Shown here piece by piece: positions 5,688-52,717 of a DNA stretch of 64,000 nt; the first letter of the stretch is position 1, and every line of letters starts with the position of its first letter. A program made the translations under genes and the position numbers. This DNA comes from an uncultured SAR86 cluster bacterium (GTDB lineage: Bacteria; Pseudomonadota; Gammaproteobacteria; Magnimaribacterales; AG-339-G14). The stretch covers positions 216,145-280,144 of the forward strand of contig CACDKN010000001.1 of assembly GCA_902553315.1 (NCBI GenBank), given 5' to 3'. The notes beneath the pieces are model-generated. The model made no database searches and was not told the origin of the DNA. It was given only the letters and a program-made list of their open reading frames with translations.

Positions 5688-7856
5688 ATGGACGTTTCAT
5701 ATATTTTAGACGAATTAAATCCAATACAAAGAGAAGCTGTAACTGATGAATCTCATCACTCATTAATCCTAGCAGGAGCTGGCTCTGGGAAGACAAAAGT
5801 TATAACGCATAAAGTGGCTTGGCTTTCATCAGTCAAAGGGGTAAATCCTTTGTCTTTGTTAACTGTAACATTCACTAATAAAGCGGCAAAAGAAATGCGA
5901 GGAAGAATAGAAAATATTCTTGAAGAAAATTTAAACCAAATGTGGTGCGGAACATTCCATGGAATTTTTCATAGAATGTTAAAAATTCATTGGCAAGAAG
6001 CCAAGCTAGTAAAAGACTTTTCAGTTATCGATAGTGAAGACCAAATGAGAGTTTTAAAACGCGTTATTCAAAATATGAATCTGGACTTAGATACTTGGCA
6101 ACCAAGAGATACCCAGTGGTTTATTAACAAGCAAAAAGATGAAGGGAGAAGAAAAGCTAAATTGAACAACAATGCTACTTTTGTAGAAGAAAAAATGGTT
6201 GATATCATGGATGAATATCAAAAAACATGTGATCGAGAGGGATTAGTTGATTTTGCTGAAATCTTAATAAGGTCCTATGAGCTCTTGGACCAAAATTCAG
6301 AATTGTTGAAACACTATCAGGCTAGATTTCAGCACATCCTAGTTGACGAATTTCAAGACACGAATGAAATTCAATATTTACTTTTAAAAAAACTTGTTGG
6401 CAAGGATGGTCGCATGACAGTAGTCGGCGATGACGATCAATCAATTTATAGCTGGCGTGGGGCAAAAAGTACAAACATCAAAAGATTTACTAAAGATTTT
6501 AATGAAGTCAAAACAATTAAGTTAGAGCAAAATTATAGATCTTCAAAAAATATCCTAGCTTGCGCAAATTCAGTGATACGGAATAATCCAGATAGACTAG
6601 GTAAGGAATTATGGTCTCAGAAAGATGAAGGTGAGCAGGTAAAGGTTTATCGAGCTTTCAACGAAAGAGACGAGGCCTCCTTTATAGTTGGAATAATTAA
6701 AAGATGGCTTGAAGAGGGAGGAAGCCTCTCAGATACTGCAATAATATATAGGTCTAACGCGCAATCTAGAATATTAGAAGACGCTATTTTAAATTCAGAA
6801 TTGCCTTATAGAATCTATGGAGGTGTTCGTTTTTACGAAAGAATGGAAATTAAGAATGCTTTGGCTTACGCAAAGTTAGCAATAAATAAAAATAATGATT
6901 CTCAATTTGAAAGAGTAATAAACACTCCGACAAGAGGAATTGGAGTTAAGACAATGGATCAGATCAGAGAGCATGCTAAAAAAGATAATTTATCTCTGTG
7001 GCAAGCATCCGAGCAAATCATCGCGAATAAAGAAACTAAAGCTGCTCAAAATATTTCTAATTTCTTTGAAGTAATAAAAAAACTAGAAGAGATGAATTTC
7101 AATGAGAACCTTGATATGTTTTTTGAAAATGTTATTTCTCTGAGTGGACTTAAAGAATTTCATGGAAAAGAGCCAGGAGAAAAGGGTAGATCAAGAGTTG
7201 AAAATTTAGAGGAGCTTATTTCTGCAACTTCTGAATTTTTCTCTTTAGGCGAAGACAAAAACGACGAGAGGTCTCTACTGGAGCTTTTTTTAGATCAAGC
7301 TTCTTTAGACGCTGGCGAAAACCAGGCAAATGAAAATGAAGATGCTATTCAAATGATGACCTTGCATTCTTCAAAGGGCTTAGAATTCCCTTTAGTTTTT
7401 ATCGCAGGCTGTGAGGAAGGTTTGTTTCCGCATAGAAGATCAGCAGAAGACCCCAAACAGTTGGCCGAAGAAAGAAGGCTTTGTTATGTTGGAATGACTA
7501 GGGCGATGGAAAGACTTTATTTAACTCATGCGGAATCGCGAAATATTTATGGGATTGATAGTTTCAGCCCTGTTTCCAGATTTATCAAAGAAATACCAGA
7601 AGAGTTAATCTATGAAATAAGAGTTTCTACAGAAACAGAAATCAAAGATAAAGGATTTGAACCAAGAATAGTTGGCGGAACAGATTACAACGTGGGAAAG
7701 TTTTCTCTTGGAGATAGAGTAGTGCATAAAAATTTTGGCGAAGGGGTAATACTCAATTATGAGGGGGACGGCTCCAATGCTAGAGTAGAAGTAAATTTTG
7801 ATAATGGGGGAATTAAATGGCTGGTACTAAGCTTTGCGAATTTAGAAAAACTTTAA
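5688..7856 (+). CDS. uvrD: DNA helicase II
   Basis: 722 aa, collinear with E. coli UvrD from MDVSYILDELNPIQREAV, through GAGSGKTKV and VDEFQDTN, to the C-terminal FGEG...IKWLV. Confidence 0.9.
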   Translation: MDVSYILDELNPIQREAVTDESHHSLILAGAGSGKTKVITHKVAWLSSVKGVNPLSLLTVTFTNKAAKEMRGRIENILEENLNQMWCGTFHGIFHRMLKIHWQEAKLVKDFSVIDSEDQMRVLKRVIQNMNLDLDTWQPRDTQWFINKQKDEGRRKAKLNNNATFVEEKMVDIMDEYQKTCDREGLVDFAEILIRSYELLDQNSELLKHYQARFQHILVDEFQDTNEIQYLLLKKLVGKDGRMTVVGDDDQSIYSWRGAKSTNIKRFTKDFNEVKTIKLEQNYRSSKNILACANSVIRNNPDRLGKELWSQKDEGEQVKVYRAFNERDEASFIVGIIKRWLEEGGSLSDTAIIYRSNAQSRILEDAILNSELPYRIYGGVRFYERMEIKNALAYAKLAINKNNDSQFERVINTPTRGIGVKTMDQIREHAKKDNLSLWQASEQIIANKETKAAQNISNFFEVIKKLEEMNFNENLDMFFENVISLSGLKEFHGKEPGEKGRSRVENLEELISATSEFFSLGEDKNDERSLLELFLDQASLDAGENQANENEDAIQMMTLHSSKGLEFPLVFIAGCEEGLFPHRRSAEDPKQLAEERRLCYVGMTRAMERLYLTHAESRNIYGIDSFSPVSRFIKEIPEELIYEIRVSTETEIKDKGFEPRIVGGTDYNVGKFSLGDRVVHKNFGEGVILNYEGDGSNARVEVNFDNGGIKWLVLSFANLEKL

Positions 7857-8917
7857 TTTATTTTTTAGTTCTTTTCTTCTTCGCTGCATGCTCTGAAGAT
7901 ACGTCTCAGAATGAAACAACATTTAAAAAAAAGAATTTTTCTTGGACGTTGGTTACGACTTGGCCCAAAAATTATCCAGGAGTTGGTCTTGGTCCGGAAA
8001 ACTTTGCCAAATTAGTTGAGGAAATGAGCGATGGAAGATTAAAAATTAAGGTCTATGGAAACGGTGAGCTCATTCCAGCTTTAGAAGTTTTCGATGCAGT
8101 TTCGAGAGGAACGGTTGAGATGGGGCATGGTGCTTCATATTATTGGATTGGAAAATTACCTGTGGCTCAATTTTTCACTACTCTTCCTTTTGGTTTAAAC
8201 GCACAAGAGCGAAATGCCTGGCTTCATTATGCTGGAGGATTGGAGCTTTGGGAGAAAGCGTATGAACCATTCAATCTAATTCCGATGGCTGGAGGAAGCA
8301 CTGGAGTCCAAATGGGAGGTTGGTTTAATAAAGAAATTAATTCTCTAGAGGACTTAAATGGAATAAGAATTAGAATGCCTGGATTAGCCGGCGAAGTTTT
8401 TTCAAGAGCTGGGGGAGAGGCAGTTTTAATGCCTGGAAGTGAAATTTTTACAAATCTTCAGACAGGAGTGATAGATGCTGCTGAGTGGATAGGCCCTTAC
8501 AATGATTTGACTTTTGGATTTCATCAAGTGGCTAAATATTATTATTATCCAGGTTGGCAAGAACCAGGAGCAATGACGGAATTTATTTTCAATCAAGAGG
8601 CTTTTAATGAGCTTCCAAACGATTTAAAAGCGATTGTCAGAACAGCTGCCAGGGCAGTGAATCAAGACATGTTGGATGAGTATACGGCTAGAAATAATCA
8701 AGCTCTGATTTCGTTGATAGAAGATCATAATGTAATTCTTAAAAAGTTTCCTGATGAAGTCCTTTACGAACTAGAAAGAATCTCTAAAGAAGTATTGGAA
8801 GAGTTTGTAGAAGAAGATAAATTCGCAACAGAGGTGTATCAATCGATCCTTGATTTCAAAAAAGGAGTCACTAATTATCATAAAATTTCTGAAGAAGCCA
8901 TTTACGATCTTAGATAG
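7817..8917 (+). CDS. TRAP transporter substrate-binding protein (DctP-type, lipoprotein)
   Basis: 366 aa with the lipobox FFFAAC. The DctP-family pattern matches COG4663-like receptors. The gene overlaps the uvrD 3' end by 40 nt. Confidence 0.8.
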   Translation: MAGTKLCEFRKTLIYFLVLFFFAACSEDTSQNETTFKKKNFSWTLVTTWPKNYPGVGLGPENFAKLVEEMSDGRLKIKVYGNGELIPALEVFDAVSRGTVEMGHGASYYWIGKLPVAQFFTTLPFGLNAQERNAWLHYAGGLELWEKAYEPFNLIPMAGGSTGVQMGGWFNKEINSLEDLNGIRIRMPGLAGEVFSRAGGEAVLMPGSEIFTNLQTGVIDAAEWIGPYNDLTFGFHQVAKYYYYPGWQEPGAMTEFIFNQEAFNELPNDLKAIVRTAARAVNQDMLDEYTARNNQALISLIEDHNVILKKFPDEVLYELERISKEVLEEFVEEDKFATEVYQSILDFKKGVTNYHKISEEAIYDLR

Positions 8918-9268
8918 TTATTTTTTTAGATAGGAAGGATTATCTATAAAAACTTTTTCCTTGGAAAGTTCAAATAAAAATTTTTCTAAAGAATCTTTAC
9001 TAAAATTTTCATTTTTAATGTTTTCAATTAACTTTTGTTTTGATGAAATTTCCTCACCAAATAAGCTGAGGCTAAGATCATTTAATTTTTTAGAAATTTT
9101 GTTTTCACCATTAATTTGTCTTTTTACAATTTTTAAAATATTTAAAGCAATTCTTACTTTAAAAACGTCCAATTCTTCAAGTTTCTCGAAATCTATTTGT
9201 TCAAAAATGAAATAATGCAGAACATCAATTAGTTCTGCTTTTGTGGGTCTATCAAAAAGATTTTTCAA
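8918..9268 (-). CDS. small acidic helical protein, possible LvaB-like partner of the adjacent kinase
   Basis: 116 aa with a 4-nt overlap to the upstream phosphotransferase gene. I recognise no motif. The call rests on operon position. Confidence 0.35.
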   Translation of the reverse strand: MKNLFDRPTKAELIDVLHYFIFEQIDFEKLEELDVFKVRIALNILKIVKRQINGENKISKKLNDLSLSLFGEEISSKQKLIENIKNENFSKDSLEKFLFELSKEKVFIDNPSYLKK

Positions 9269-10224
9269 AACTCTTTATTTTTGATCATGTTCATTAAATC
9301 AAATTCCGTTTCAGATACTCTCCTGCCAATTGCAGCTTTTTCAATAGAATTTAAATTATTTTGTAGGTGAGCAAAAGTCTGGATCATGCATATTACCCCC
9401 CATCTCAAAGATCCATAGATTTGCCAAGCATCTAATTCAAAGCGATCCACTGTTTCAGATGAAATTGATTCATAGCCCTTTATTAGATCATCTAAGTCTC
9501 CTAAACCAGCAACTCTTTTAGAATTATTTCCGAATCTCCATGATTTCACGCAAGCCCAACTTAAATCTTCTGAGGGATCGCCAATGTGGGCAAGCTCCCA
9601 ATCGATTATAGATTCAATAGAATTTTCTGTGATTATAAAATTTCCCAACCGGTAATCTCCATGAATTAAAACGTTATTTTTTTTCTTTATCTTTACTTTA
9701 GCTAAGTAATTGAAAACATACTCAAAGACTGGCTGCGGCTCATTGAAGGAAGAATAAACCTCATAAAGCTTGTTAAGAGAATCATAAAAAGTCATTTTTT
9801 CTAATTCTTTTATTTCGCTTAAATCCGTCCGATGAATTTTTGCTAAAATCTCCCCAATTCTATAGGTAAGGTTTGGTCTAATTTGAGCGAAATTTTCGTC
9901 TCTTAAAATTTTTCTAGGAATTGTTTCTCCTGAAATAAACTCCATTACATAGCCACTTCCAACCCCACTTGATTCGTCAAATTCTTTAATAATTTCAGGT
10001 ACCGGTATATCGTTCTTCTTAACAATTTTTTGAACTTTAGCTTCTATTTTTTTTGTAATTGCTAATCGAGACCCTGAATTTTCAGGCGTTTTTCTTAACA
10101 CAAACCTTTTTCCATTTTTTAAAGTAATGTTATAAATATCTGCTGATGCACCTCCTGAAAGGGGGTAGAATTCTTCAAATTCAGCCTCAAGAAGGCTCTC
10201 GACGAATTTTTGAAGATCAGCCAT
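9265..10224 (-). CDS. phosphotransferase (APH/choline-kinase fold) family protein
   Basis: Kinase motifs LIHGDYRLGNFI and IDWELAHIGDP. I moved the start to the internal MADLQKF (ATG at 10224), which overlaps the ACAD stop by 8 nt. The track start at 10365 would overlap the ACAD gene by about 150 nt. Confidence 0.75.
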   Translation of the reverse strand: MADLQKFVESLLEAEFEEFYPLSGGASADIYNITLKNGKRFVLRKTPENSGSRLAITKKIEAKVQKIVKKNDIPVPEIIKEFDESSGVGSGYVMEFISGETIPRKILRDENFAQIRPNLTYRIGEILAKIHRTDLSEIKELEKMTFYDSLNKLYEVYSSFNEPQPVFEYVFNYLAKVKIKKKNNVLIHGDYRLGNFIITENSIESIIDWELAHIGDPSEDLSWACVKSWRFGNNSKRVAGLGDLDDLIKGYESISSETVDRFELDAWQIYGSLRWGVICMIQTFAHLQNNLNSIEKAAIGRRVSETEFDLMNMIKNKEF

Positions 10225-11428
10225 TTTGTTGATTTTGAAGTGAAGCATCTCTCTCTCCAAAATCCCAACCAGATCCATTATTTTCGTAATTCTTGAGAAT
10301 TCTTTTAGCAACAGACTGTATATGGACCTCATCTGGCCCATCATAAATCCTAGCCTCTCTAGCATGTCTATACATTAAGCTTAGAGGCGTATCATCTGTT
10401 AATCCTTTAGCACCATGTACCTGAATTGCCCTGTCAATTACGTTGTGAAGCATCTGTGCTCCTAATACTTTAATAAGTCCAATTTCTATTCTTGCATCGT
10501 CTCCTTGATCTATTCTTTTTGCAGCATCAAGAGTAAGTTGTCTAGACGATTGAATTTCACACGCACTATCAAAAACAAATTTCTGAAGGAGCTGCTTTTG
10601 AGTTAATGAAGTTCCAAAAGTTTCTCTTTCATGCATTCTTGAACAAAGTAAATCAAATGCTCTTTGGGCTTGGCCCAGCCATCTCATGCAGTGAAAAATT
10701 CTTCCTGGGCCCAGTCGTTTTTGAGCTATTAAAAATCCATGTCCCCTAGGACCAAGTAAATTTTCCTCTGGAACTTCTACGTTGTCATATTCAACCTCAT
10801 AGTGGCCGCCATTTATCCCAAGAACAGGAGTTTCTCTAATGATTTTATAACCAGGATTATCAGTTGGAACAATTATCATGCTAAAGGCTCCATGACCTGG
10901 AGAGTCTAATTCAGTTTTGCACATAACCGTTGTATAGGCCGCTCTAGAAGCACCCGTGGTGAACCATTTCCTTCCGTTAATTCGCCATACGCCATTTTCT
11001 AAGACAGCTGTTGTTTTAAGTTGCGTAGGATCGGAACTAGCAACATCTGGCTCTGTCATTCCAAAACTTGGAAATATTTCACCTTTGATCAATGGTTCAA
11101 GGTATTTCTCTCTCCAATTATCGGATGCAAACTCTCTTAACATGATTGAATCTTGAAGGGATACTGTTCCAAGACCTACGTTTGCATAAGCTGATCTTCC
11201 AATAACTTCATTGACATAGACGTATTCCATAAATGGCATGCCCCCGCCACCGATGTCTTTTGGATGCCCTAAGGCCCAAATATTTTCATCCTTAGCCATT
11301 TGAGTAATACTTTTCAGTATTTTTTGAGATTCTTTTGAATTATTGGCTAATATGTCTTCGACCGGATAGATCTCTTCTTCTATAAAACTTTTTACTTTAG
11401 ATCTAATTTTGGTCCAATCGTTTTTCAT
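10217..11428 (-). CDS. acyl-CoA dehydrogenase family protein (ACAD10/11-like subtype)
   Basis: 403 aa with full ACAD N/M/C domain layout (GMTEPDVASSD, WFTTGA, QVHGAKG). Confidence 0.85.
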   Translation of the reverse strand: MKNDWTKIRSKVKSFIEEEIYPVEDILANNSKESQKILKSITQMAKDENIWALGHPKDIGGGGMPFMEYVYVNEVIGRSAYANVGLGTVSLQDSIMLREFASDNWREKYLEPLIKGEIFPSFGMTEPDVASSDPTQLKTTAVLENGVWRINGRKWFTTGASRAAYTTVMCKTELDSPGHGAFSMIIVPTDNPGYKIIRETPVLGINGGHYEVEYDNVEVPEENLLGPRGHGFLIAQKRLGPGRIFHCMRWLGQAQRAFDLLCSRMHERETFGTSLTQKQLLQKFVFDSACEIQSSRQLTLDAAKRIDQGDDARIEIGLIKVLGAQMLHNVIDRAIQVHGAKGLTDDTPLSLMYRHAREARIYDGPDEVHIQSVAKRILKNYENNGSGWDFGERDASLQNQQNG

Positions 11429-11434
11429 TTAAAA

Positions 11435-12523
11435 TCAGCCTTTAGAGAATTCTTTAACAGCTTTCCATACTCTGAGAATATTTCCATTCAGAATTTGGTC
11501 TATTTCGCTCTCAGAATAACCTCTTACAAGAAGCTCTTCGATAAGATTTGGAAACTTAGACACATCATTAATGTCTTCAGGTAAAGGGACTTCACCATCA
11601 AAATCAGAACCTAAACCGACATGATCAATACCAACAAGATTTTTTACACGATCAATATTGTCTACTACATTTTTTACAGTCACTATCATGTCAGGATTTG
11701 ATTTTGTATCTGCTACAAAATCAGAGCCGAAGCAAATTTGTAGCACTCCATTGTTTTTAGCCAAAGCAATTAGCATCTCGTCTGAAACATTTCTCTCCCA
11801 ACCAGGCGTAAAATGTCTTAAAGAACTATGTGTCGCTATAACTGGAGTTTCGCTAATTTCTAAAACCTTCATGAATGCGGCATCCGAGACGTGAGATATA
11901 TCAATCATTACCCCTTGCTTATTCATTTCTTTGACAACTTCAAATCCAAAAGGACTGAGACCGTCTTTCCATCTCTTGTTTTCATCGTATGAACTATCGG
12001 ATATGTGATTACTCTTAGAATGCGCTAAGGTAATGTAATTTACTCCGAGATCAGCAAAATATTTTATGTTTTCTAACTTTCCTTCTATTGGAGCTCCATT
12101 TTCGATTCCATAGGCAATTCCTACTAAATTTTTATTCTTCTCTAAAATACTAATATCAGACGGATCTTTTATAAAAGTGAATTTATCCGAATTGTCTGAA
12201 ATAATTTTGTTCATCATTTCTATTAATTCTACAGCTAAGTCGAAAGAGGTGCCTTCTGGTTCAGTGCTTGCTGGAATATAAATTGCAAAAAAAGGAAGAT
12301 TTAGACCACCCTCTATGGCTCTTGGATAATCAAAGTGATAGGAAGAAATTTTTGTTATGTCGTCGCTTACACCGGTATTATTTTTTTGACGCCAAATCTG
12401 AAAGGGAGTGTCAATATGGGAATCTATGATAATTTTATTTTGACTATACTCTTTTGCTTTTTGACTTAAATCTTCTGCGCAAGAGACTAATAAAATGATT
12501 AAAAAAATGAAAATTTTTTTCAT
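11435..12523 (-). CDS. membrane dipeptidase (peptidase M19), lipoprotein
   Basis: 362 aa with lipobox LLVSCAE. IIDSHIDTP, HSKSNH and the GLGSDFDG motif are typical of the renal-dipeptidase family. Confidence 0.8.
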   Translation of the reverse strand: MKKIFIFLIILLVSCAEDLSQKAKEYSQNKIIIDSHIDTPFQIWRQKNNTGVSDDITKISSYHFDYPRAIEGGLNLPFFAIYIPASTEPEGTSFDLAVELIEMMNKIISDNSDKFTFIKDPSDISILEKNKNLVGIAYGIENGAPIEGKLENIKYFADLGVNYITLAHSKSNHISDSSYDENKRWKDGLSPFGFEVVKEMNKQGVMIDISHVSDAAFMKVLEISETPVIATHSSLRHFTPGWERNVSDEMLIALAKNNGVLQICFGSDFVADTKSNPDMIVTVKNVVDNIDRVKNLVGIDHVGLGSDFDGEVPLPEDINDVSKFPNLIEELLVRGYSESEIDQILNGNILRVWKAVKEFSKG

Positions 12524-12566
12524 AGCTATTTTTTAATATAACAAAAAAACTTTTGTTTCGTTAGAA

Positions 12567-13928
12567 CTAAAAGATTAATTCTGGCAACAATGTAGCTAGA
12601 AAAGGAAAATAAGCAACTAAACACAAAACCAAAATTTGAATCAAAATAAAAGGAAAAACGCCTTTGTACATTGACTCAGTACTAATAGTTTCCGGAGTTA
12701 CGCTTCTTAAATAAAATAAAGCAAATCCAAAGGGAGGGGTAAGAAAAGATGTTTGCAGATTGATTGCGAGCATCACTCCTAACCAGAGAGGATCAGCCCC
12801 CATAGCCATCAAGATCGGCCCAACGATTGGCACAACTATAAAAGTAATTTCAATGAAGTCTAAAATAAATCCTAAGACAAAAACTAAAAGCATTACTAAA
12901 AACATTGAACCAAACAATCCGCCAGGTATTGCATTGAAAATTTCAGTTATCAGTTCTTCACCTCCCAGTCCTCTGAAAACTAAAGAAAAAATTGACGCTC
13001 CAATTAAAATTAAGAAAACCATAGAAGATATAAAAGCACTTTGGGTAGTAGATTCTTTAAAAATTTTAAAATTTAATTTTTTGTGAATTAAAGCAATAAA
13101 TATAGCTCCCAAAGCTCCTATGCCAGCAGCTTCTGTGGGAGAAGCAATGCCAGTAATAATTGATCCCAGAACAGCAAAAATAAGAAAGAAAGGAGGGATC
13201 AGTGTTGAGATTAGTTCAAAAAAGTTTTCGTGTTTTTGATTTTCATCTAAAGTTAAGACTTCCTTTTTTAAGGATAAAACAAAATAGAGACCGTATAAAA
13301 ATACTAAAATTAAACCAGGTATTATAGCTGCCATAAATAAATCACCAACCGAAAGAGATTTAGCTACGTAGTTACCAATCTTTAACTGAGATTGTTGATA
13401 AGCAGTGGCTAATACGTCTCCCAATATTACCAATGCAATTGATGGTGGAATTATTTGCCCTAAGGTTCCTGTTGCAGCAATGAGGCCGGTAGATACTTTT
13501 TCAGAATAACCCCTTGCTAACATTGCGGGCAAAGATATTAAGCCCATAGCTATTACTGTTGCGCCAACAATTCCTGTACTAGCAGCAAGTAAAGTTCCAA
13601 CAAACAAGATAGAAATTCCAAGACCACTTTTATATCTACTGAACAAGTTAGACATGGAAGTTAACAACAGCTCAGCAACTTTAGATTTCTCTAAAATAAC
13701 ACCCATAAATACAAATAATGGCACGGCAACGAGCGTTGCATTTGTCATAATCCCAAAAAGTCTATTTGGCATTGTTTCAAGCAAGTTTATTTCAAAGGCT
13801 CCAAAAATACTTGCTACGAAAGCGAAAAGGATTGAAACACCTCCCAAAGTAAAGGCAACTGGGAATCCTAAGAGAAGAGTCAAACAAATTACAAAAAATA
13901 ATAACAGCGGGAGAAGTTCAATCATCAT
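12567..13928 (-). CDS. TRAP transporter large permease (DctM)
   Basis: 453 aa, polytopic, with a DctM-type sequence. It overlaps the small-permease gene by 11 nt. Confidence 0.85.
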   Translation of the reverse strand: MMIELLPLLLFFVICLTLLLGFPVAFTLGGVSILFAFVASIFGAFEINLLETMPNRLFGIMTNATLVAVPLFVFMGVILEKSKVAELLLTSMSNLFSRYKSGLGISILFVGTLLAASTGIVGATVIAMGLISLPAMLARGYSEKVSTGLIAATGTLGQIIPPSIALVILGDVLATAYQQSQLKIGNYVAKSLSVGDLFMAAIIPGLILVFLYGLYFVLSLKKEVLTLDENQKHENFFELISTLIPPFFLIFAVLGSIITGIASPTEAAGIGALGAIFIALIHKKLNFKIFKESTTQSAFISSMVFLILIGASIFSLVFRGLGGEELITEIFNAIPGGLFGSMFLVMLLVFVLGFILDFIEITFIVVPIVGPILMAMGADPLWLGVMLAINLQTSFLTPPFGFALFYLRSVTPETISTESMYKGVFPFILIQILVLCLVAYFPFLATLLPELIF

Positions 13929-14421
13929 TAAAGTAAGAAAGAATATTTGCGAAACTTTGCATAATTAGCAGAACGGCAGAAACTAGAATAATTGATTTAT
14001 AAAGGTATACAAATGGCAAACCTCCAGGTTCAGCAGAAGTTTCTTTTATCAACCAAGAAAATGAAACGTAATCGATTGATAAAATGAAAATGACCCACAA
14101 CATTGGTTGTAAGAAAAAAATATTTCCAAAAAGATTAATAATTTTTTTTCTTCTTTTGGAAAATTTTCTATAAAAGATATCAACCCTTACATGTTGATCT
14201 TTCTTTAAAGCATATGCAGCACAAACTAGGAAAGTGATCCCGTGACAATAAATTATAAGCTCCTGCAGGCTCAATATTCCAATCCCAAAAACATATCTAG
14301 ATACAACAACGTATGCTGTCAAAAAGATCATAAGAACCATAAACCAGGTACTTACCTTGCCAAGAATAGAGGGAAAAAATATTAGTATAGATTGGCAAAT
14401 TTGGTTAATATTTTTTATCAT
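13918..14421 (-). CDS. TRAP transporter small permease (DctQ)
   Basis: 167 aa with 4 TM segments, immediately upstream of and overlapping DctM. Confidence 0.7.
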   Translation of the reverse strand: MIKNINQICQSILIFFPSILGKVSTWFMVLMIFLTAYVVVSRYVFGIGILSLQELIIYCHGITFLVCAAYALKKDQHVRVDIFYRKFSKRRKKIINLFGNIFFLQPMLWVIFILSIDYVSFSWLIKETSAEPGGLPFVYLYKSIILVSAVLLIMQSFANILSYFNDD

Positions 14422-15221: not shown

Positions 15222-16085
15222 TTAGGATTTATTATTTTTTCCGTACTCTTTAATCTCTAAAATATCTTCGAATTCAGGTTCTCTTTTCTCTACCCTAGAC
15301 ATCATGGCTTCAGCCATATCTTCTTGAGGAAGCATGGCTCCGCTCCAAAGTGCATTATATTCAAGACCATCTGATATTGAATGATCACGTGAAAAGTTTA
15401 ATACAGCTTTGGTTCCATAGACTGCTAAAGGACTTTTAGAAGCAATCTCATTTGCCATTTCTTGAATTCCTTCTAACATGGATTCATGAGTCTCAAATAC
15501 TTTGTTAACTAAACCGCATTCTAAAGATTCTTCGGCATACATTCTTCTTCCTGTGTAGGCCAGTTCTCTGACTTTTCCTTCTGGAACAACTCTAGGCAAA
15601 CGCTGGAGAGTACCAATATCAGCAGCCATACCAATATTTACTTCTTGGATACAGAAAAATGCATCTTTGCTTGCAAATCTTATATCTGCTGCAGTTGCCA
15701 TATCCAGTCCTCCTCCGATGCAGCCACCTTGGATTCCGCAGAGCACAGGAATTCTTAATTTCTCTAATTTTGTTAAATTTTCTTGAAGTTCCATGGCAAC
15801 TCTATATAAACCTTCACCAATTCTTGCTTTGTCTGGTCTGTTATCTTTTTTTGCTTCTCCTGTCCCGAGTGTTCCAAAATTTGCAAGATCCATTCCTGCA
15901 CAAAAATGTTTTCCGGTAGATGAAAGAACTAAAACTCTTAAGGATGTATCTTTCCTAATTTCATCAAGAACTCTTGGCAGCTCGTACCAAAAATTAAGAG
16001 TCATCTTGTTGAATTCCTCACCTCTATTTAACTTTAGGTGACCAATTCCATTTTCTTTTTTGAAATCAAAACTTTCGTAAGTCAT
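15222..16085 (-). CDS. enoyl-CoA hydratase/isomerase (crotonase) family, dienoyl-CoA-isomerase-like
   Basis: 287 aa. Crotonase-fold motifs FCAGMDL and GGCIGGGLDM. Confidence 0.8.
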   Translation of the reverse strand: MTYESFDFKKENGIGHLKLNRGEEFNKMTLNFWYELPRVLDEIRKDTSLRVLVLSSTGKHFCAGMDLANFGTLGTGEAKKDNRPDKARIGEGLYRVAMELQENLTKLEKLRIPVLCGIQGGCIGGGLDMATAADIRFASKDAFFCIQEVNIGMAADIGTLQRLPRVVPEGKVRELAYTGRRMYAEESLECGLVNKVFETHESMLEGIQEMANEIASKSPLAVYGTKAVLNFSRDHSISDGLEYNALWSGAMLPQEDMAEAMMSRVEKREPEFEDILEIKEYGKNNKS

Positions 16086-44914: not shown

Positions 44915-47419
44915 ATGAAAATTTTTAAGCTATGTTTAATGGCAGCGCCGTTAATCACGTCTTTATATGCATTTTCACAAGATGCAGTTTTAGAAGAGTT
45001 GGTAGTTACCGCTCAAAAAAGAGAATCAACTTTAATGGATACGTCAGCTGCTTTGGTTGCTGTTTCAGGAGAAGATCTTGATCAGGCCGGAGTAAACGCA
45101 ATTGACGACATTGCTCTTTTAACTCCTGACGTTCAAGTCTCTGGAGAAGGAAAAGCCAGAATGGGAGTAAGAATAAGAGGTGTAGGAACCTATGGTTTTG
45201 ATATTGCTGTTGACCCATCTGTTGCCATGGTTGTAGATGGAGTAACTCAGCCAAGAGTTTCTACTTTTATGAACGGATTCGATGACATTGAAAGATTAGA
45301 AATCCTAAAAGGACCACAAGGAGCAATTTATGGAACTAATGCTTTAGGTGGAATCGTAAACATTGTTACAAAAAAACCAACCCAAGAACAATCCGCTCGA
45401 ATAAAAGTCAAAGGTGGAAACAATGGTAGACAAGATTTAAATTTAAGTCTGCAAGGTGGAATTAATGATGCCGTATCTGCTAGATTTAATCTAATTAGAG
45501 AAGTCGATGAGGGAGTTTCATTTGACCCTAATTCTGGCCAAGACGATGGAGTCCATTTGTCTGGTTATAGGCTTTCTTTTTATGGAGAAGCTGGAGCCAC
45601 GGAATGGAATTTGAAAATGGCTAATACTTTGCTTGAGCAAGACGCAACTATTTCTGAAGTAGCTTTTCTTTGTAATTCAAAAGCACCCGGTCAAGCAGCT
45701 GAATATTTTGGAGTTGCTGGGTTACCTCCAAATAATACCAATGGAGATGTTTGTTCAGCTAATGCAGCTCCGTCTTCCTATCAGACTTTAGGAACAGCAA
45801 ATATGTCAAACCCTTTAGTAGTAGCTGCACTTTCGGATCAGTACAGCCAAGCGATGACTATTTCTGGTTTTAATGTAGTTGAAACAACGGATGTCTCTTT
45901 TTCTTCAACAACTGATCTTGGTGGAATGTCATTGACTTCAGTCCTTGGATACCAAAAGGTTAATTCCTTTGAAGACAGAGATTTTGACCAATTAGATCTT
46001 AATGCAATATTTCAAGAACATGCTGCGGATACTGAAACTACTTCTCTTGAGCTCAGACTTGATTCAGATCCTTCTGATGAAATCGAATGGTCTGTAGGGG
46101 TTTATGCAATGAGAGATGAAGGTTCAAGATTAGATACGTTTGCCTCTGGAAATCAAAGTAGTTTTGCTGCCGCCTTTGGATTAGGAGCAGCTGCAGCTGC
46201 AGTCTCTACAGCTAACACTACCGAAGCTGCTGCAGGAGATTACGCAATTGGTGTTAATCCAAGAGCTGTGCCAAATATCATTGCAGCATATCAAGCTTGT
46301 GCCGCTGCAGGAAACTGTAGAGCTTTCTTGAATCCAACTACTCAAAGACCTGTTCCATTTGGTGAGTTTGTCGATGCTATTGATGTTGCAAATTTAAACC
46401 AAGCTTTAAATGGAGAGTGGACAAGTTCAGTAAATGTAGATTTGGACACCGAATCAAATGCAATTTTTGCCAATGTTAAATTTCCTCTAACAGAGCAGCT
46501 TAATTTATTACTAGCAGGAAGATATACTGACCATGACAAGCCTTATACTTACACCGGTTCAACAAATGCTCTTAGAGTACCTTTCGTATCTGCTCCATTT
46601 GTAGTAAATAATGGTTCCTTTCATGAAGAATTTAATCCCAAAGCAACTCTTGAATATGTCGGTGATGATAGTTTAGCTTGGCTAACTTTTGCCGCTGGAT
46701 TTAAAGCAGGAAGCGTTGGATTTGCTAACTTCAGCGCATCTGCGGCAGATACGCCTGCTGCCATGGAAGAACTTGAAATGATTGAATTGGGTTATAAAGC
46801 AACTCTTCAAGATGGTAGAAGTCAATTAGAAGCCATTGCTTACACTTACGATTATACCGATCATCAACAATTGTTAGTTTGTACCACTGCGGCTGGTCCT
46901 GCAGGTTGTGTTAAGACTGGAGACGCAACAATCAATGGTCTTGATTTAGCCTACAGAACGGCTTTAACTTCGCAAACAAGATTTTCCGTTGCTTATTCTT
47001 ACATTGATGCCAGTTGGGATAGATTCTTAGATGATAGAGATCCCTCTGCAGCAGTAAACCTTGCCGGGAAACAAATGCCTCAAAGTGCTGAAAACAACTT
47101 AAACGTTAGCGTCGAACATGTGCAACCAGTTGCAGCTGGCGACATTGTTTACAGTCTTGCGGCAGCTTATAAAGATGATTACGTTTTAGGACTAGATCCT
47201 TGGACAAATGTTAATGATGTTCAAGATTTCACAATGGTTAATTTAAATATAACTCTTGAAAGAGCAGGCAACTTTGACATTGGCTTTTTCTGCACTAACT
47301 GTAGTGATTTTGAGTACAAGCGAGTAGCGCTTGAACTTGGAAGAGGCGGTGGTGGAGGCCAGCGTTATGCTATGGCCGACGGAAGAAGATACGGTATTGA
47401 AGCAACAAGTAACTTTTAA
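44915..47419 (+). CDS. TonB-dependent receptor
   Basis: 834 aa with a signal peptide, a plug region (ELVVTAQKRESTLMDTSAAL) and a C-terminal aromatic end (...ATSNF). Confidence 0.85.
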   Translation: MKIFKLCLMAAPLITSLYAFSQDAVLEELVVTAQKRESTLMDTSAALVAVSGEDLDQAGVNAIDDIALLTPDVQVSGEGKARMGVRIRGVGTYGFDIAVDPSVAMVVDGVTQPRVSTFMNGFDDIERLEILKGPQGAIYGTNALGGIVNIVTKKPTQEQSARIKVKGGNNGRQDLNLSLQGGINDAVSARFNLIREVDEGVSFDPNSGQDDGVHLSGYRLSFYGEAGATEWNLKMANTLLEQDATISEVAFLCNSKAPGQAAEYFGVAGLPPNNTNGDVCSANAAPSSYQTLGTANMSNPLVVAALSDQYSQAMTISGFNVVETTDVSFSSTTDLGGMSLTSVLGYQKVNSFEDRDFDQLDLNAIFQEHAADTETTSLELRLDSDPSDEIEWSVGVYAMRDEGSRLDTFASGNQSSFAAAFGLGAAAAAVSTANTTEAAAGDYAIGVNPRAVPNIIAAYQACAAAGNCRAFLNPTTQRPVPFGEFVDAIDVANLNQALNGEWTSSVNVDLDTESNAIFANVKFPLTEQLNLLLAGRYTDHDKPYTYTGSTNALRVPFVSAPFVVNNGSFHEEFNPKATLEYVGDDSLAWLTFAAGFKAGSVGFANFSASAADTPAAMEELEMIELGYKATLQDGRSQLEAIAYTYDYTDHQQLLVCTTAAGPAGCVKTGDATINGLDLAYRTALTSQTRFSVAYSYIDASWDRFLDDRDPSAAVNLAGKQMPQSAENNLNVSVEHVQPVAAGDIVYSLAAAYKDDYVLGLDPWTNVNDVQDFTMVNLNITLERAGNFDIGFFCTNCSDFEYKRVALELGRGGGGGQRYAMADGRRYGIEATSNF

Positions 47420-48017: not shown

Positions 48018-49589
48018 ATGAAGTGGATTAAGTTTTGCGTTATTTTTTTGGCTGTATTTAGTTCATTTCTTATAAAAGCCTACGATAATCCAAACGTTTT
48101 AATAATCCTAACGGATGACCTGGGATGGGGTGATGTCTCTTATCATGGAGGCTTCATACCAACCCCAAATATTGACCAACTAGTTGAAAAAGGGATGGAA
48201 ATGAATAGATTTTATTCTAACCCTGTATGCAGTCCGACGAGAGCTTCTATGTTGACAGGTCTGCATATATTTAATCACGGTGTTGTCAGGCCTTTCATGA
48301 ATCCAGCAGCAGAACAAACGGGAATGCCTTCAGATTTGAAGATTATGCCTCAGTATTTTAAGGAGGCAGGATATCAAACAGCGTTATCGGGAAAATGGCA
48401 TCTGGGTATGGCAAAAGAAGAATTTTGGCCAACTAACAGGGGGTTTGATAGCAGTTATGGGCACATGACTGGAGGCATCGGGTATTTTGATCATACCGCC
48501 GCAGGTCGGTTGGATTGGCATAGGAATGAAAAGACATTATACGAAGAAGGGTATTCAACTGAGTTAATTGCAACCGAAGCCATTAAAATTATTCAAAATA
48601 AGGATCAAAATACACCCCTTTTTCTCTACGTAGCCTTTAACGCGCCGCACACTCCAATTCAGGCTGAACCAAAAGATATTGAAGCTTTCTCATACTTAGA
48701 AGACAAAAAAGACAGAGTCTATGCTGCCAATGTTTCTGCCTTAGATAGAGAAATAGGAAGAATAATTCAAGCCGTCGAGAGTGAAGGGATATTAGAAGAG
48801 ACTATTATCGTATTTTTTAGTGACAATGGCCCTGTTTTTGATATTGATCCGATTGTTAAAGTGATCGCACCGAATTTAATAGATGCCAAAGGTAGTACTG
48901 CTGGGTTGAGAGGCAGTAAAGTCTCAGCACTTGAAGGGGGCATCAGAGTTCCAGCAGCTATTTGGTGGAAGGGCGTGATTGAAGGCTCTAAATCTGATCA
49001 ATTTTTCTTTGTTCAAGATCTATTACCTACTTTGCTGGCTGCAGCAAATATCGAAACGGAAGGAATGGAAAAATTAGACGGCAAAAATAAATGGGACAAT
49101 CTAATTTCAAATACAGTAATCGCTCCAGAAAATGCGTTTGTTGGGGCTAGAGTAATTGCAGATGAGAGAGCTTTATTCGATGGACAATGGAAACTTTATT
49201 CATCCAGACCTCAATTGATACCTGTCTCTGCTTCTTACAGTCTATATAACATCTTGGATGATCCTTACGAAACGGTTGATCTTTCAGAAGTAGAACCTAA
49301 GATTTTTGAAAAGATGAAAAAAACTCTCTCTTCGATTGTCGAGCGAGACATTGTAGGTGACATGAATCCAGCCCATGCTTACTTGCATGGTGATGACAGA
49401 CAAGGAGGAGAATCTTTAGCTTCGCCTTGGTTGGAAGGAAATTATGAGCTCAACCCTCCACCGAATGCTATTAATACTTTTTTTATAACTTTATGGATTT
49501 TGACTTTGGCTTTCATAGAGTACCTAACGATCTTAGTATTATTAATATTGGCTCCTTTAATTTATTTTAAATTTTTCAGAAGCAAATGA
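48018..49589 (+). CDS. arylsulfatase (Cys-type formylglycine sulfatase) with C-terminal hydrophobic anchor
   Basis: 523 aa with a signal peptide, LTDDLGWGD, the CSPTRASMLTG signature and GKWHLG. The last ~45 aa are strongly hydrophobic. Confidence 0.85.
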   Translation: MKWIKFCVIFLAVFSSFLIKAYDNPNVLIILTDDLGWGDVSYHGGFIPTPNIDQLVEKGMEMNRFYSNPVCSPTRASMLTGLHIFNHGVVRPFMNPAAEQTGMPSDLKIMPQYFKEAGYQTALSGKWHLGMAKEEFWPTNRGFDSSYGHMTGGIGYFDHTAAGRLDWHRNEKTLYEEGYSTELIATEAIKIIQNKDQNTPLFLYVAFNAPHTPIQAEPKDIEAFSYLEDKKDRVYAANVSALDREIGRIIQAVESEGILEETIIVFFSDNGPVFDIDPIVKVIAPNLIDAKGSTAGLRGSKVSALEGGIRVPAAIWWKGVIEGSKSDQFFFVQDLLPTLLAAANIETEGMEKLDGKNKWDNLISNTVIAPENAFVGARVIADERALFDGQWKLYSSRPQLIPVSASYSLYNILDDPYETVDLSEVEPKIFEKMKKTLSSIVERDIVGDMNPAHAYLHGDDRQGGESLASPWLEGNYELNPPPNAINTFFITLWILTLAFIEYLTILVLLILAPLIYFKFFRSK

Positions 49590-50233: not shown

Positions 50234-52717
50234 TTAAAAGGATTGCTGATAAGTTAACTTCCACTCTTCCCCAGGAGCGTAATAAGTTGTTTGAAAACTT
50301 GCAAGAAAAGGATCTCCAAATTGAGCGTAGCCATATAATTCGTCTGTTATATTTTTTCCAATTAAAGAAATGGTCTGACTATCAGAAATTTGCCAACTCG
50401 AGTTAAAGTCCAAAGTTGAATAGCTATGAAGCTGAGAATAGTCGTAAAGCTCTGTAGTTGTGAAATCGTCGCCAACATGAGTCCAACTGAGAGAAGTTAA
50501 TACAGATCCTCCCCTTAAAGAAAAGTTATGCAAAAACGTAAAATTCGTTCTAGATTCAGGACCCTCTGCATCATAAGCATATTTTGTAAAGTCGTTACCA
50601 CTGTCGTCAAAAAACTCTTTGTATTTTCCTCCGTAAACTCCTCTAGAAGACAATAAGGATAGATTGTCCGTTAATGAAAATTTCAATTCGATTTCATAAC
50701 CGTCCACTTCAGCTTTTTGAATGGGGACAGTAACTATAGAAGCAACTCCGTTTTGAGCAATCTTTCCAATAGTCCTTTGGTTATTGACGTATTCAAAGAA
50801 AAATAAATTTGCGTTCAACTGCAGTCTATTGCTCAGGTAAGTTCCTTTGGTTCCGATTTCATAATTGTCCGCAGTTTCTGCTGGGAAGCCTGTAACTTTG
50901 TCGTCATTACTAAATCCCCCAGAGGCAAAGCCCTTTGCATAAGAAAAGTATATTAAAGAGTCATTATTCAAAGAATAATCGATAGCAAATCTGGAAGAAT
51001 CGTTTTTAAACTCTTCATTTCCAAGACAATAGGAGTCTTTATAAAAAGTTCCAGCAGGTCCAAAATTTAAAGCAGTGCCTTGAAAAAATGTTTGAGAGCA
51101 TGTTTGCGCTACGGGCGATCTCACACCTCCAAAGCCATTACTCAGCCCAGGAATTATTGCGTCTGAATAAGTTTTTACCATCTTGTTTTCCTTGGATGTT
51201 CTGAAACCAAGTGTCATGTTAGTTTTATCATTCAATGCATATGTGCCTTCAAAGAAATATGCGGTAGAGTCATTTTCTGCAAAAGTAGTTTGCTGAGAAC
51301 TAAAAGCTTGTAAACTTTGAACAGTTGCACAGTATCTGGCTTGGGTAGCTGGGTCAGAACAATCTTTTCCTAACAAAGCAAACACAGAAGCCAGCATGAC
51401 ATTAGCTCTTGCATCAACTGATGCTTGGGTTTCATCAGTTCCGACTCCGTCATAATACATTGTGTTGAGTTGATTAATACCGGTTTCATCAAAAGTATAA
51501 GCACCAATAACGTAATCAAGTTTTCCATTTAAAGCTTTGCCAGACCACCTCAGTTCAATTTGATTTGCGTTGGCATCGTTTACGATGTCTCTTGGATCGA
51601 GATATCCGGCAGCTTTTTTACCGTCTGATGGCAAAGCATTTGAAGGTCTATTGCCACCAACACTTAACCCTAGATTTCCATTTAAAGAATCCAATTGAGT
51701 GCTTCCTATCAAAAGCTTTAAGTTGCCATGATCATTAGAATAATTAAAATCTAAAGTTGTTCTCTCTAAATCATCCTCTACTCTCGGACTGCTCAGAGAA
51801 GTGCCACTCACTCCAGGAACGCTAGCGTTGCAATTATTCTGAATGGCTGCAGCTAGCGTTGGATCAGCAACTGCAGCAGCTCCCATTAAAGCTGAAGCGT
51901 TTATACCAACAACTCCAGTACCATTCAAAGGGTGGGCAACGATTTTACAGGCTCCTAGTGCTCGACTTCCATCTCTGTTGTAAATAACGTGAGAAAGGTT
52001 AAGAGTAAAATCGTCGTTAAATTTATACAAACCAGACAGTCTTAAAGTTTCAGCATCTATTTCTCCGGAAAAATCATTCAAAGTATTGTTGTAAATGTAT
52101 CCATCTTGTCTCTCGCTACTATACGACACCCTTAACCCTGAATTAGCCGAAATAGGTAAATTAGCCATAAAAGCCAATTCATCTCTAGAATCACTACCCA
52201 CACCAATTCTGACTTTAAAATTTTCTCCTTCCAGGTTTGGCTTATTGTAAAAAAAGGAAACGGCCCCAACAGTTGAGTTTTTTCCAAATAAAGTTCCTTG
52301 GGGTCCTTTTAGAACTTCGACCCTGTTTAAATCCCAAAGGTCTAGGAAATTTCCTTGAGTTCTCGAGACATAAATTCCATCAATATATGTTGCCGCTTGA
52401 GACTCTGAAGTTACCGAAAATCCACTTCCGCCAACACCCCTTATTGTTACTGCTGCTGTTCCATAAGCACCATTCTTAACAACCTGAAGATTAGGCGAAA
52501 CTCGATCGAGATCTTCGTAGGTGAAAATGCCAACTTCTTCAAGAGTTTCACCAGAAAAAGCTGAAATCGAAATAGGTACAGATTGAGAACCTTCTTCACG
52601 TTTTCTTGCGGTAACTATGACTTCTTCAGAAATATTACTGAAAGTATTTTGACTAGATTGAGAAAATCCTAAAACAGGGTTTAATAAAATAGTTATTAAT
52701 AAAATTCTTAAGTGCAC
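50234..52717 (-). CDS. TonB-dependent receptor
   Basis: 827 aa with a signal peptide, a plug region (EEVIVTARKREEGSQSVP) and a C-terminal ...YQQSF. Confidence 0.85.
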   Translation of the reverse strand: MHLRILLITILLNPVLGFSQSSQNTFSNISEEVIVTARKREEGSQSVPISISAFSGETLEEVGIFTYEDLDRVSPNLQVVKNGAYGTAAVTIRGVGGSGFSVTSESQAATYIDGIYVSRTQGNFLDLWDLNRVEVLKGPQGTLFGKNSTVGAVSFFYNKPNLEGENFKVRIGVGSDSRDELAFMANLPISANSGLRVSYSSERQDGYIYNNTLNDFSGEIDAETLRLSGLYKFNDDFTLNLSHVIYNRDGSRALGACKIVAHPLNGTGVVGINASALMGAAAVADPTLAAAIQNNCNASVPGVSGTSLSSPRVEDDLERTTLDFNYSNDHGNLKLLIGSTQLDSLNGNLGLSVGGNRPSNALPSDGKKAAGYLDPRDIVNDANANQIELRWSGKALNGKLDYVIGAYTFDETGINQLNTMYYDGVGTDETQASVDARANVMLASVFALLGKDCSDPATQARYCATVQSLQAFSSQQTTFAENDSTAYFFEGTYALNDKTNMTLGFRTSKENKMVKTYSDAIIPGLSNGFGGVRSPVAQTCSQTFFQGTALNFGPAGTFYKDSYCLGNEEFKNDSSRFAIDYSLNNDSLIYFSYAKGFASGGFSNDDKVTGFPAETADNYEIGTKGTYLSNRLQLNANLFFFEYVNNQRTIGKIAQNGVASIVTVPIQKAEVDGYEIELKFSLTDNLSLLSSRGVYGGKYKEFFDDSGNDFTKYAYDAEGPESRTNFTFLHNFSLRGGSVLTSLSWTHVGDDFTTTELYDYSQLHSYSTLDFNSSWQISDSQTISLIGKNITDELYGYAQFGDPFLASFQTTYYAPGEEWKLTYQQSF

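Follow-up and report, generated by a model that had tools for sequence, protein, structure and literature searches.

A SAR86 gene triad resembling LvaABC and ACAD10/11, predicted to feed 4-hydroxyacyl-CoA thioesters into beta-oxidation

A phosphorylate-then-eliminate route for 4-hydroxy acids has reportedly been described for the bacterial LvaABC system, in 2017, and for ACAD10 and ACAD11, in 2024–25. Our account of LvaABC (Rand et al. 2017) follows summary passages in PMC6692424, PMC12440821 and PMC11342911; the passage in PMC6692424 states that LvaA and LvaB are both required in P. putida and that they were co-purified in a pull-down. In ACAD11, the HCMR motif and an upstream Arg (H634, R637 and R626) bind the 4-phospho group, and phospho-elimination is abolished in mutants of the signature residues (PMC12440821). 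Here we characterize three adjacent genes in a 64,000-nt window (the whole stretch of DNA that was analysed), whose products belong to the same families as P. putida LvaA, LvaB and LvaC: an APH-fold kinase, a DUF6285 subunit and an acyl-CoA dehydrogenase (ACAD) of the HCMR/Asp type. Unlike the P. putida genes, the triad is found in a streamlined marine SAR86 bacterium. The genes and their overlaps, taken from the ORF listing and from reading of the sequence (overlaps from direct reading), are:

11428–10217, minus strand: ACAD gene, 403 aa
10224–9265, minus strand: APH-fold kinase gene, 319 aa, ATG start
9268–8918, minus strand: DUF6285/LvaB-like small gene, 116 aa, TTG start
10217–10224, minus strand: overlap of ACAD stop and kinase start, 8 nt, ATGGCTGA
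9265–9268, minus strand: overlap of kinase stop and small-gene start, 4 nt, TTGA

Three minus-strand genes with 8-nt and 4-nt overlaps had been proposed in the original prediction, and this layout was borne out. The same two overlaps are present in the relative L092. At the position matching the junction of kinase and small gene, relative L001 has TTGA and the 61% relative L004 has ATGA, so that the TTG start of the small gene coincides with an ATG in L004. Extended mechanically, the kinase ORF would reach 10365 (366 aa), and a 337-aa version is used in some public annotations; the relatives at 67–71% identity have 319 aa, and the small protein is kept at 116 aa in all relatives. In comparisons with relatives, dN/dS was 0.02–0.03 for the ACAD, 0.11–0.13 for the kinase and 0.21–0.25 for the small ORF. 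All three are real genes under purifying selection. A scan for promoters and terminators returned counts equal to the shuffled expectation and did not delimit the operon boundaries.

We propose, with a probability of about 0.75, that the triad is a two-enzyme module through which 4-hydroxyacyl-CoA thioesters enter beta-oxidation. The kinase, acting with the DUF6285/LvaB-like subunit, would transfer phosphate from ATP to the 4-hydroxyl group of a 4-hydroxyacyl-CoA. An Arg/His cluster of the ACAD (R238, H246, R249) would hold the 4-phospho group, and the enzyme, with Asp363 and a redox-active FAD, would eliminate the phosphate to leave a 2-enoyl-CoA, which could then enter an ordinary enoyl-CoA hydratase step and the remainder of beta-oxidation. 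Both the substrate class and the chemistry are ones that we infer from LvaABC and ACAD10/11, which have been characterised. Most likely the triad represents this known kinase-plus-flavoenzyme route and no new kind of system.

The resemblance to LvaC-LvaA-LvaB and ACAD10/11 on which the original prediction was built was supported by HMM and alignment comparisons at three points, namely the clade of the ACAD, the alignment of the kinase and the DUF6285 kinship of the small protein. As in P. putida, the small-subunit gene directly follows the kinase gene with overlapping stop and start, and the predicted chemistry is the same. The gene order differs (ACAD-kinase-small here, kinase-small-ACAD in lva operons) and identities to LvaABC are low: the kinase reaches 29% and the ACAD 32%, and the small protein is related at profile level only. 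With respect to ACAD10/ACAD11 (8v3u, 8v3v), ACAD11 is the best solved relative of the ACAD, which shares 36% identity with its dehydrogenase domain, and the kinase has the APH3-like type of the mammalian enzymes, including an equivalent catalytic Asp and Asn. The mammalian proteins are each one fused chain, whereas the triad encodes separate polypeptides; the triad has no HAD phosphatase domain, unlike mammalian ACAD10/ACAD11, and has a DUF6285 subunit in addition, of which the cited ACAD10/11 papers describe none.

In the ACAD, Pfam found the N, M and C acyl-CoA dehydrogenase domains, in agreement with the family first assigned to it. Its best PDB match was mouse ACAD11 (8v3u, 5e-69, 236 bits), with a margin of ~70 bits over the best ordinary ACAD (164 bits). 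As a control, a Sulfitobacter ACAD lacking the HCMR motif was searched in the same database, and its top matches were all ordinary ACADs with no ACAD11 near the top. R238, R243, H246, R249 and D363 of the window enzyme correspond to R626, R631, H634, R637 and D753 of ACAD11, and the HCMR motif (H246-C-M-R249) and the upstream Arg can be read directly from KRLGPGRIFHCMRW. All of the residues that mutagenesis found to be needed by ACAD11 for turnover of 4-phosphoacyl-CoA are conserved. Asp363 lies in RIYDGPDEVH, which aligns with RLADGPDEVH of ACAD11, and ordinary ACADs have Glu at this position; LvaC and the Thermus and Azoarcus ACADs read DGPSEVH, and the neighbouring-type ACAD of Sulfitobacter has EG. 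In a neighbor-joining tree the enzyme fell inside the ACAD11/LvaC (HCMR) clade with the Thermus and Azoarcus enzymes. The closest of the sequences compared was the Thermus ACAD (38% identity, 256 bits), and identity to LvaC was 32%. PDB ranking, signature residues, tree and control agree in grouping the protein with ACAD11 and LvaC, and as judged from its sequence it is a member of the ACAD10/11/LvaC clade and not an ordinary FadE-type dehydrogenase.

These results bear on another explanation of the locus, in which an ordinary beta-oxidation ACAD sits beside a kinase for antibiotics or small molecules that is unrelated to it, and the small ORF is spurious. Such an arrangement would account for the NCBIfam output: the curated models name none of the triad proteins, giving generic sub-threshold matches for the ACAD and the kinase and none for the small protein, although RefSeq-named LvaB is likewise unmatched. 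We find it hardly credible, given the Asp at the catalytic Glu position, the HCMR cluster, the ranking of ACAD11 above all other solved structures together with the behaviour of the HCMR-less control, a small ORF that is a Pfam member of constant length under purifying selection, and the occurrence of the three genes together across different genome contexts.

The kinase was assigned to the APH family by Pfam (7e-30), again as first proposed, and the two motifs quoted at that stage are present, HGDYRLGN at residues 188–195 and IDWELAHIGDP at residues 207–217. It aligned with LvaA end-to-end at 27–29% identity (29% over residues 22–313, E 1e-38 to 9e-44; 29% over 306 residues at 9e-44) and with the ACAD11 kinase domain at 28% identity over ~200 residues. 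When the kinase, LvaA and relatives are aligned, R44, E61, H188, D190, N195 and D208-W-E do not vary, and with the catalytic HxDxxxxN and the metal-binding DWE motif the active site is intact. In the PDB the kinase matched 3dxp (1e-12), the ACAD11 kinase domain (4e-8, 36 bits) and one generic APH (7e-4). Scores over the shared region were 87 bits for LvaA, 74 bits for 3dxp and 62 bits for the ACAD11 kinase, so that LvaA is hardly closer than the others. Scores against NCBIfam antibiotic-kinase models were far below the cut-offs; among solved structures 3dxp and the ACAD11 kinase come closest, ahead of any antibiotic or choline kinase, and the window kinase aligns full-length with LvaA. We predict the protein to be the catalytic subunit of a kinase that acts on 4-hydroxyacyl-CoA.

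A different activity for this fold has been reported in a preprint, in which several prokaryotic ACAD10-kinase homologues phosphorylated 1-O-alkylglycerols in vitro, some of them in an acetyl-CoA-dependent manner (PMC13596139). If the window kinase were likewise an ether-lipid kinase, its position next to the ACAD would not imply a shared substrate. It does have DWE and, placed by alignment position only, the pairing of a beta3 Arg (for Lys; R44) with an alphaC Glu (E61) that is described for the bacterial ACAD10-type kinase (PMC13596139). However, the homologues assayed there lie near human ACAD10 (up to 63% identity), whereas the window kinase scores only 36 bits with the kinase domain of ACAD11 and reads HGDYR where the preprint has an HYDxK motif. 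It also has an LvaB-type partner subunit and overlaps by 8 nt with an ACAD of the phospho-eliminating type, and no other feature of the window indicates ether-lipid metabolism. We regard alkylglycerol phosphorylation as very unlikely here.

The small protein belongs to Pfam DUF6285 (PF19802; 37.8 bits against a cut-off of 28.1, 3e-9). So does RefSeq-named LvaB from a complete Pseudomonas lvaR-ABCDEFG-type operon (85 bits, 4.8e-24), and the gene at the LvaB position of a second lva-type operon is annotated as DUF6285. Alignment of the small protein with LvaB by hhalign gave 96.7% probability (E 4e-10, 109 columns), and an HMM trained on LvaB and members from outside SAR86, with no SAR86 sequences, retrieved it at 4.4e-17 as the sole match among the 198 ORFs of the window. 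Pairwise BLASTP against LvaB returned no alignment, and the relationship is therefore remote, at profile level only. With the SAR86 small-protein profile as query, HMMER retrieved only 69 relatives among 1.84 billion representatives, mostly stand-alone and 110–135 aa long, which indicates that the SAR86 branch is divergent. The kinship with LvaB suggested at the outset is thus supported by Pfam, hhalign and an independent HMM. Of the earlier description as a small helical protein, the size stands at 116 aa, and helicity is represented by the five helices of an AlphaFold2 model of low confidence (pLDDT 54.7, from a 9-sequence alignment). The small protein is predicted to be a non-catalytic partner subunit of the kinase, related to LvaB.

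In a survey of genomic loci, DUF6285 was found directly after the kinase, or fused to it, in 78 of the 80 best-matching loci; the survey used the first iteration of the DUF6285 HMM, since a second iteration drifted to 167 matches and was discarded. Pairing or fusion of the two is near-obligate. Six of these 80 loci carry in-frame natural fusions, which argues for physical pairing, and by analogy with the LvaABC and ACAD10/11 systems we infer that the kinase and the small protein form a complex. The literature searched makes no mention of DUF6285; tying this Pfam family to LvaB, with its almost invariable pairing with the kinase clade, could improve annotation across many bacterial genomes.

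The triad is conserved in SAR86, where it moves as a unit between two different genome contexts. SAR86 bacteria are among the most abundant marine heterotrophs, and their genomes are very small. That such genomes keep an intact, tightly coupled triad in two subclades suggests that the surface ocean regularly offers 4-hydroxy acids as a source of carbon. No link between SAR86 and the 4-hydroxy-acid pathway was present in the literature searched. Outside SAR86 the nearest kinase relatives are 35–43% identical. Kinase-DUF6285 pairs there occur in unrelated contexts or beside an ordinary Glu-type ACAD, and in 70 of the 80 kinase loci no HCMR-type ACAD lies nearby, so the pair may serve several substrates. 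Clusters in Thermus thermophilus pTT27, Azoarcus sp. KH32C and Stutzerimonas stutzeri do have an HCMR-type ACAD beside the kinase and DUF6285. These are uncharacterised lva-like operons, and they add an SDR, an AMP-binding enzyme and a histidine phosphatase that are absent beside the window triad.

The genes that surround the triad are:

14421–13918, minus strand: dctQ, upstream and co-oriented (Pfam, via identical synteny in L001 and L092)
13928–12567, minus strand: dctM, upstream and co-oriented (Pfam, via identical synteny in L001 and L092)
12523–11435, minus strand: M19 dipeptidase with a lipoprotein-like N-terminus, upstream and co-oriented (Pfam)
7817–8917, plus strand: TRAP solute-binding protein DctP, convergent (Pfam DctP, 5e-59)
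15222–16085, minus strand: enoyl-CoA hydratase-family gene (Pfam ECH_1, 5e-44; NCBIfam PRK06142, 309 bits)

The enoyl-CoA hydratase-family gene is syntenic in L001 and L092, and its product might act on the 2-enoyl-CoA predicted for the module. The gap between the M19 gene and the ACAD start is just 6 nt, and the DctP stop codon directly abuts that of the small gene. The dctQ-dctM-M19 synteny persists to a kinase identity of 68% and is absent in the 61% SAR86 subclade, in which the triad follows lysS without TRAP or M19 genes. Tight packing is found throughout this streamlined genome, so that gene adjacency is weak evidence, and a functional link of the triad to the dctQ, dctM, M19 and DctP genes is uncertain.

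Two readings give these neighbours a role. In one, the chemistry is the same and the substrate another: the kinase-DUF6285 pair would phosphorylate a different hydroxylated CoA thioester (branched, amino-substituted or with a differently positioned hydroxyl), the ACAD would eliminate the phosphate, and the TRAP transporter and periplasmic M19 enzyme would supply the precursor. The many kinase-DUF6285 contexts without an HCMR-type ACAD are consistent with this, as are the conserved embedding of the triad within the dctQ-dctM-M19 run with its convergent dctP and the TRAP transporter that also adjoins the ACAD-SDR-kinase-DUF6285 cluster of Azoarcus, which is TRAP-flanked like the window triad. 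We nevertheless consider it unlikely, because the ACAD keeps the exact 4-phospho-binding residues of ACAD11, the lysS-linked triad of the second subclade does without TRAP and M19, and adjacency counts for little in so compact a genome. Between clusters, the DctP proteins also share only 23–29% identity, and on this basis a TRAP substrate common to the clusters was rejected as evidence. In the second reading, which extends the 4-hydroxyacyl-CoA module and which we offer tentatively as a possible elaboration, the module in this SAR86 subclade would be built into a dedicated uptake operon: dctQM, the periplasmic M19 lipoprotein hydrolase and the convergent dctP would take up free 4-hydroxy or 4-oxo acids, or liberate them from an amide-linked precursor, for subsequent catabolism, and a large, multi-pathway clade of bacterial acyl-CoA kinases would depend on DUF6285/LvaB as an obligate subunit. 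If the uptake operon is real, 4-hydroxy acids from lipid peroxidation or lactones would form a class of dissolved organic carbon of their own, and an important one, for SAR86.

Finally, we searched the window for the remaining parts of a levulinate pathway. With the eight proteins of a Pseudomonas plasmid lva operon as tblastn queries, only the LvaA and LvaC homologues were matched; the LvaD reductase, LvaE synthetase, LvaR regulator and LvaFG transporter that an lva operon has gave no match in the window. Since there is no LvaD, LvaE or LvaR homologue, the window holds a 4-hydroxyacyl-CoA module only and not a levulinate operon. The earlier statement that the window has no acyl-CoA synthetase also held, with no match to three AMP-binding queries at tblastn E<=1e-3. 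A family III CoA-transferase is encoded at 55364–56590, 44 kb from the triad.

Three minus-strand genes at 8918–11428 overlap by exactly 8 nt and 4 nt, as originally described:

11428..10217, minus strand, ACAD family gene (403 aa)
10224..9265, minus strand, APH-fold kinase gene (319 aa, ATG start)
9268..8918, minus strand, small ORF (116 aa, TTG start)

The ACAD stop and the kinase ATG share 8 nt within ATGGCTGA, and the kinase stop and the small-gene start share 4 nt (TTGA); identical overlaps are seen in scaffold L092, which carries a related kinase. The mechanical kinase ORF reaches up to 10365, and public calls for close relatives give a 337-aa form that starts 18 codons upstream and overlaps the ACAD gene by 62 nt (window 9265-10365; L001, a related locus, 8001-9014). 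The kinase is 319 aa in relatives of 67–71% identity, and gene calls for more distant relatives also give 319 aa and the 8-nt overlap. The small gene of L004, a 61% relative, has an ATG start at the site of the window TTG. Compared with their relatives, all three genes show purifying selection (dN/dS 0.02–0.03 for the ACAD, 0.11–0.13 for the kinase and 0.21–0.25 for the small ORF), and because this includes the small ORF, it is a real gene.

The window ACAD contains three ACAD domains (Pfam), and its top solved structure is mouse ACAD11 (8v3u, E 5e-69, 236 bits), followed by human ACAD11 and a mycobacterial relative, versus 164 bits for the top ordinary ACAD among solved structures. Residue-level alignment shows that it carries KRLGPGRIFHCMRW and RIYDGPDEVH, and that R238, R243, H246, R249 and D363 correspond to ACAD11 R626, R631, H634, R637 and D753. 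Around the HCMR motif, R626, H634 and R637 bind the 4-phospho group, are needed for turnover and are conserved solely in ACAD10/11 and LvaC, in which Asp replaces the Glu of ordinary ACADs as catalytic base (PMC12440821). The same motifs are found in LvaC of a Pseudomonas lva operon and in the ACADs of the Thermus and Azoarcus lva-like clusters, and a neighbour-joining tree groups the window ACAD with these proteins and ACAD11. Structure match, signature residues and tree therefore agree with the proposed placement in the ACAD10/11/LvaC clade. As a negative control, a Sulfitobacter ACAD adjoining a kinase-DUF6285 pair lacks HCMR, has the Glu and matches only ordinary ACADs in the PDB; that the window gene is likewise an ordinary ACAD, adjoining an unrelated kinase, is extremely improbable. 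LvaC of the plasmid lva operon (L007 8337-9509) is 34% identical to mouse ACAD11 380-769 by BLASTP, a value for the dehydrogenase domain that differs from the 56–62% given for KT2440 LvaC against ACAD10/11 (PMC11342911).

The kinase belongs to Pfam APH (7e-30). Solved relatives at E<=1e-5 are limited to the ACAD11 kinase domain and 3dxp, a protein of APH fold from Cupriavidus whose deposited name is 'putative acyl-CoA dehydrogenase', and the window kinase falls far under the cut-offs of antibiotic-kinase models; a grouping with antibiotic kinases, which would have spoken against the prediction, is thus not seen. Its alignment with LvaA covers the whole length (29% identity, E about 1e-40), as do those with the kinases of Thermus, Azoarcus, Azotobacter and Sulfitobacter, and R44, E61, H188, D190, N195 and D208-W-E are invariant across all of them. 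Over the core region LvaA scores 87 bits, slightly above 3dxp (74) and ACAD11 (62). The kinase clade is broad, and the substrate is not fixed by kinase sequence alone. That it serves as an alkylglycerol kinase, the activity described in a preprint on ACAD10 (PMC13596139), is very unlikely.

The small protein falls in Pfam DUF6285 (37.8 bits; gathering score 28.1). A tblastn search of plasmids with the window kinase reached an lva operon on P. aeruginosa plasmid p12939-PER, in the order sigma-54-type regulator, phosphotransferase, lvaB, ACAD, SDR, acyl-CoA synthetase, DUF485 protein and acetate symporter, which we take to agree with the P. putida lvaR-lvaABCDEFG operon reportedly described by Rand et al. 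in 2017. The other papers cited here describe lvaABCDE and LvaR only. The plasmid lvaB bears the RefSeq name 'lvaB, 4-hydroxypentanoyl-CoA kinase subunit LvaB'; its 90% cluster takes in P. putida-group proteins of the same name, and it matches DUF6285 at 4.8e-24. A Stutzerimonas lva-type operon has, at the LvaB position, a gene annotated plainly as DUF6285. The predicted kinship of the 116-aa protein with LvaB is upheld through this shared family and at the profile level, pairwise BLASTP between the two giving no alignment: profile-profile comparison of the SAR86 group with LvaB and three other DUF6285 proteins gave 96.7% probability (E 4e-10, 109/116 columns), and an HMM seeded from LvaB and non-SAR86 members alone found the small ORF at 4.4e-17, as its sole match among the window's 198 six-frame ORFs. 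AlphaFold2 models it with five helices, though at low confidence (pLDDT 54.7).

To survey co-occurrence, the kinase alignment was run against one genome for each bacterial species, and counts were taken over the best 80 loci among the matches listed, the top ones being SAR86 single-cell genomes. In 78 of the 80, a DUF6285 protein comes after the kinase or is joined to it in one chain (72 of these confirmed by a SAR86-free HMM). Only 10 have an HCMR-type ACAD within 3 kb, namely those of SAR86, a Spongiibacteraceae MAG, and Bradyrhizobium and Actinomadura relatives; other pairs sit beside a Glu-type ACAD, in housekeeping surroundings or by an indolepyruvate:ferredoxin oxidoreductase. Kinase and DUF6285 thus make up the obligate unit. 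Direct coupling to a phospho-eliminating ACAD, as in the window, is one arrangement among several and is shared by Pseudomonas, Stutzerimonas, Thermus and Azoarcus. At six of the 80 loci (L069, L070, L072, L074, L083, L089) the two are naturally fused in a single ORF of 479–580 aa, with DUF6285 in frame after the kinase domain (e.g. L070 7596-9302); the hosts are Nocardia, Actinomadura, and MAGs of Pseudomonadales and alphaproteobacteria. Such Rosetta-stone fusions suggest that the two proteins function together, which fits the pull-down reported for LvaA and LvaB (PMC6692424). A second ACAD type of ~425–445 aa, with catalytic Glu, without HCMR and in a clade of its own, also adjoins kinase-DUF6285 pairs:

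L008 7339-8670; L038-L075 (Bradyrhizobium loci); L081; L082: second ACAD beside kinase-DUF6285, in Sulfitobacter, Bradyrhizobium and Phenylobacterium

On Cupriavidus pinatubonensis plasmid p2 (L094 3956-9889) the pair has a dapA-like gene on one side and a gene of the indolepyruvate:ferredoxin oxidoreductase family on the other, and no ACAD, which suggests that it serves other pathways too.

Sequence relates the three proteins to LvaC, LvaA and LvaB, and the ACAD and kinase also to ACAD10/11, as first claimed; the triad is most likely the 4-hydroxyacyl-CoA module of that system, and it is not a levulinate operon. The kinase/LvaB-like complex would phosphorylate a 4-hydroxyacyl-CoA; the flavoenzyme of ACAD10/11/LvaC type would then transiently oxidise the substrate, eliminate the phosphate and re-reduce, as proposed in PMC11342911 and PMC12440821, to yield a 2-enoyl-CoA for beta-oxidation. 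We give about 75% probability to the triad being this known two-step route, for which we infer substrate, chemistry and complex; family placement, motifs, pairing and conservation were observed directly. Compared with lva operons, the gene order differs and the accessory genes are absent, with no LvaD, LvaE, LvaR or LvaFG homologue in the 64-kb window, and the proteins are only 29–36% identical to characterised ones of the lva/ACAD10-11 system. The Thermus, Azoarcus and Stutzerimonas clusters have a further gene directly after DUF6285, whereas none is found beside the window triad:

L009 7249-7902; L011 7364-8041; L095 7283-8044: histidine phosphatase family gene

Such a gene was likewise noted in P. 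citronellolis (PMC6692424). The literature searched yielded no mention of DUF6285 and no link of SAR86 to the 4-hydroxyacyl-CoA pathway.

The triad is flanked by transporter genes:

11435-14421, minus strand, dctQ, dctM and M19 dipeptidase, running directly into the ACAD gene
7817-8917, plus strand, dctP, convergent with the small gene and abutting it

The M19 gene, whose product has a lipoprotein-like N-terminus (LLVSC), ends 6 nt from the ACAD gene. This SAR86 subclade shares the order dctQ, dctM, M19 dipeptidase, ACAD, kinase, DUF6285 with dctP convergent, an order kept down to 68% kinase identity, and has an enoyl-CoA hydratase gene near the triad. In another subclade (61% identity) the triad follows lysS in wholly different surroundings without the TRAP/M19 arrangement; the conserved unit is the triad, not this neighbourhood. 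Since genes are tightly packed throughout this genome, a functional link to TRAP/M19 can only be hypothesised, and the same chemistry on another hydroxylated thioester, perhaps supplied by these genes, is possible but unlikely. From its predicted start, dctP shares 40 nt (7817-7856) with the end of a uvrD-like helicase gene, and several further window gene pairs overlap or abut, so adjacency is a weaker sign of shared function. Consensus promoter and terminator scans of the window were uninformative. A single candidate for a CoA-activating enzyme was seen in the window, a CoA-transferase:

55364-56590, minus strand, family III CoA-transferase, 44 kb from the triad
54767-55360, minus strand, DSBA-like protein adjoining the CoA-transferase
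52824-54023, plus strand, Rieske ring-hydroxylating oxygenase alpha subunit, adjoining the CoA-transferase/DSBA-like protein

Finally, two TonB-dependent receptors (44915-47419, plus strand; 50234-52717, minus strand) flank a sulfatase (48018-49589, plus strand).
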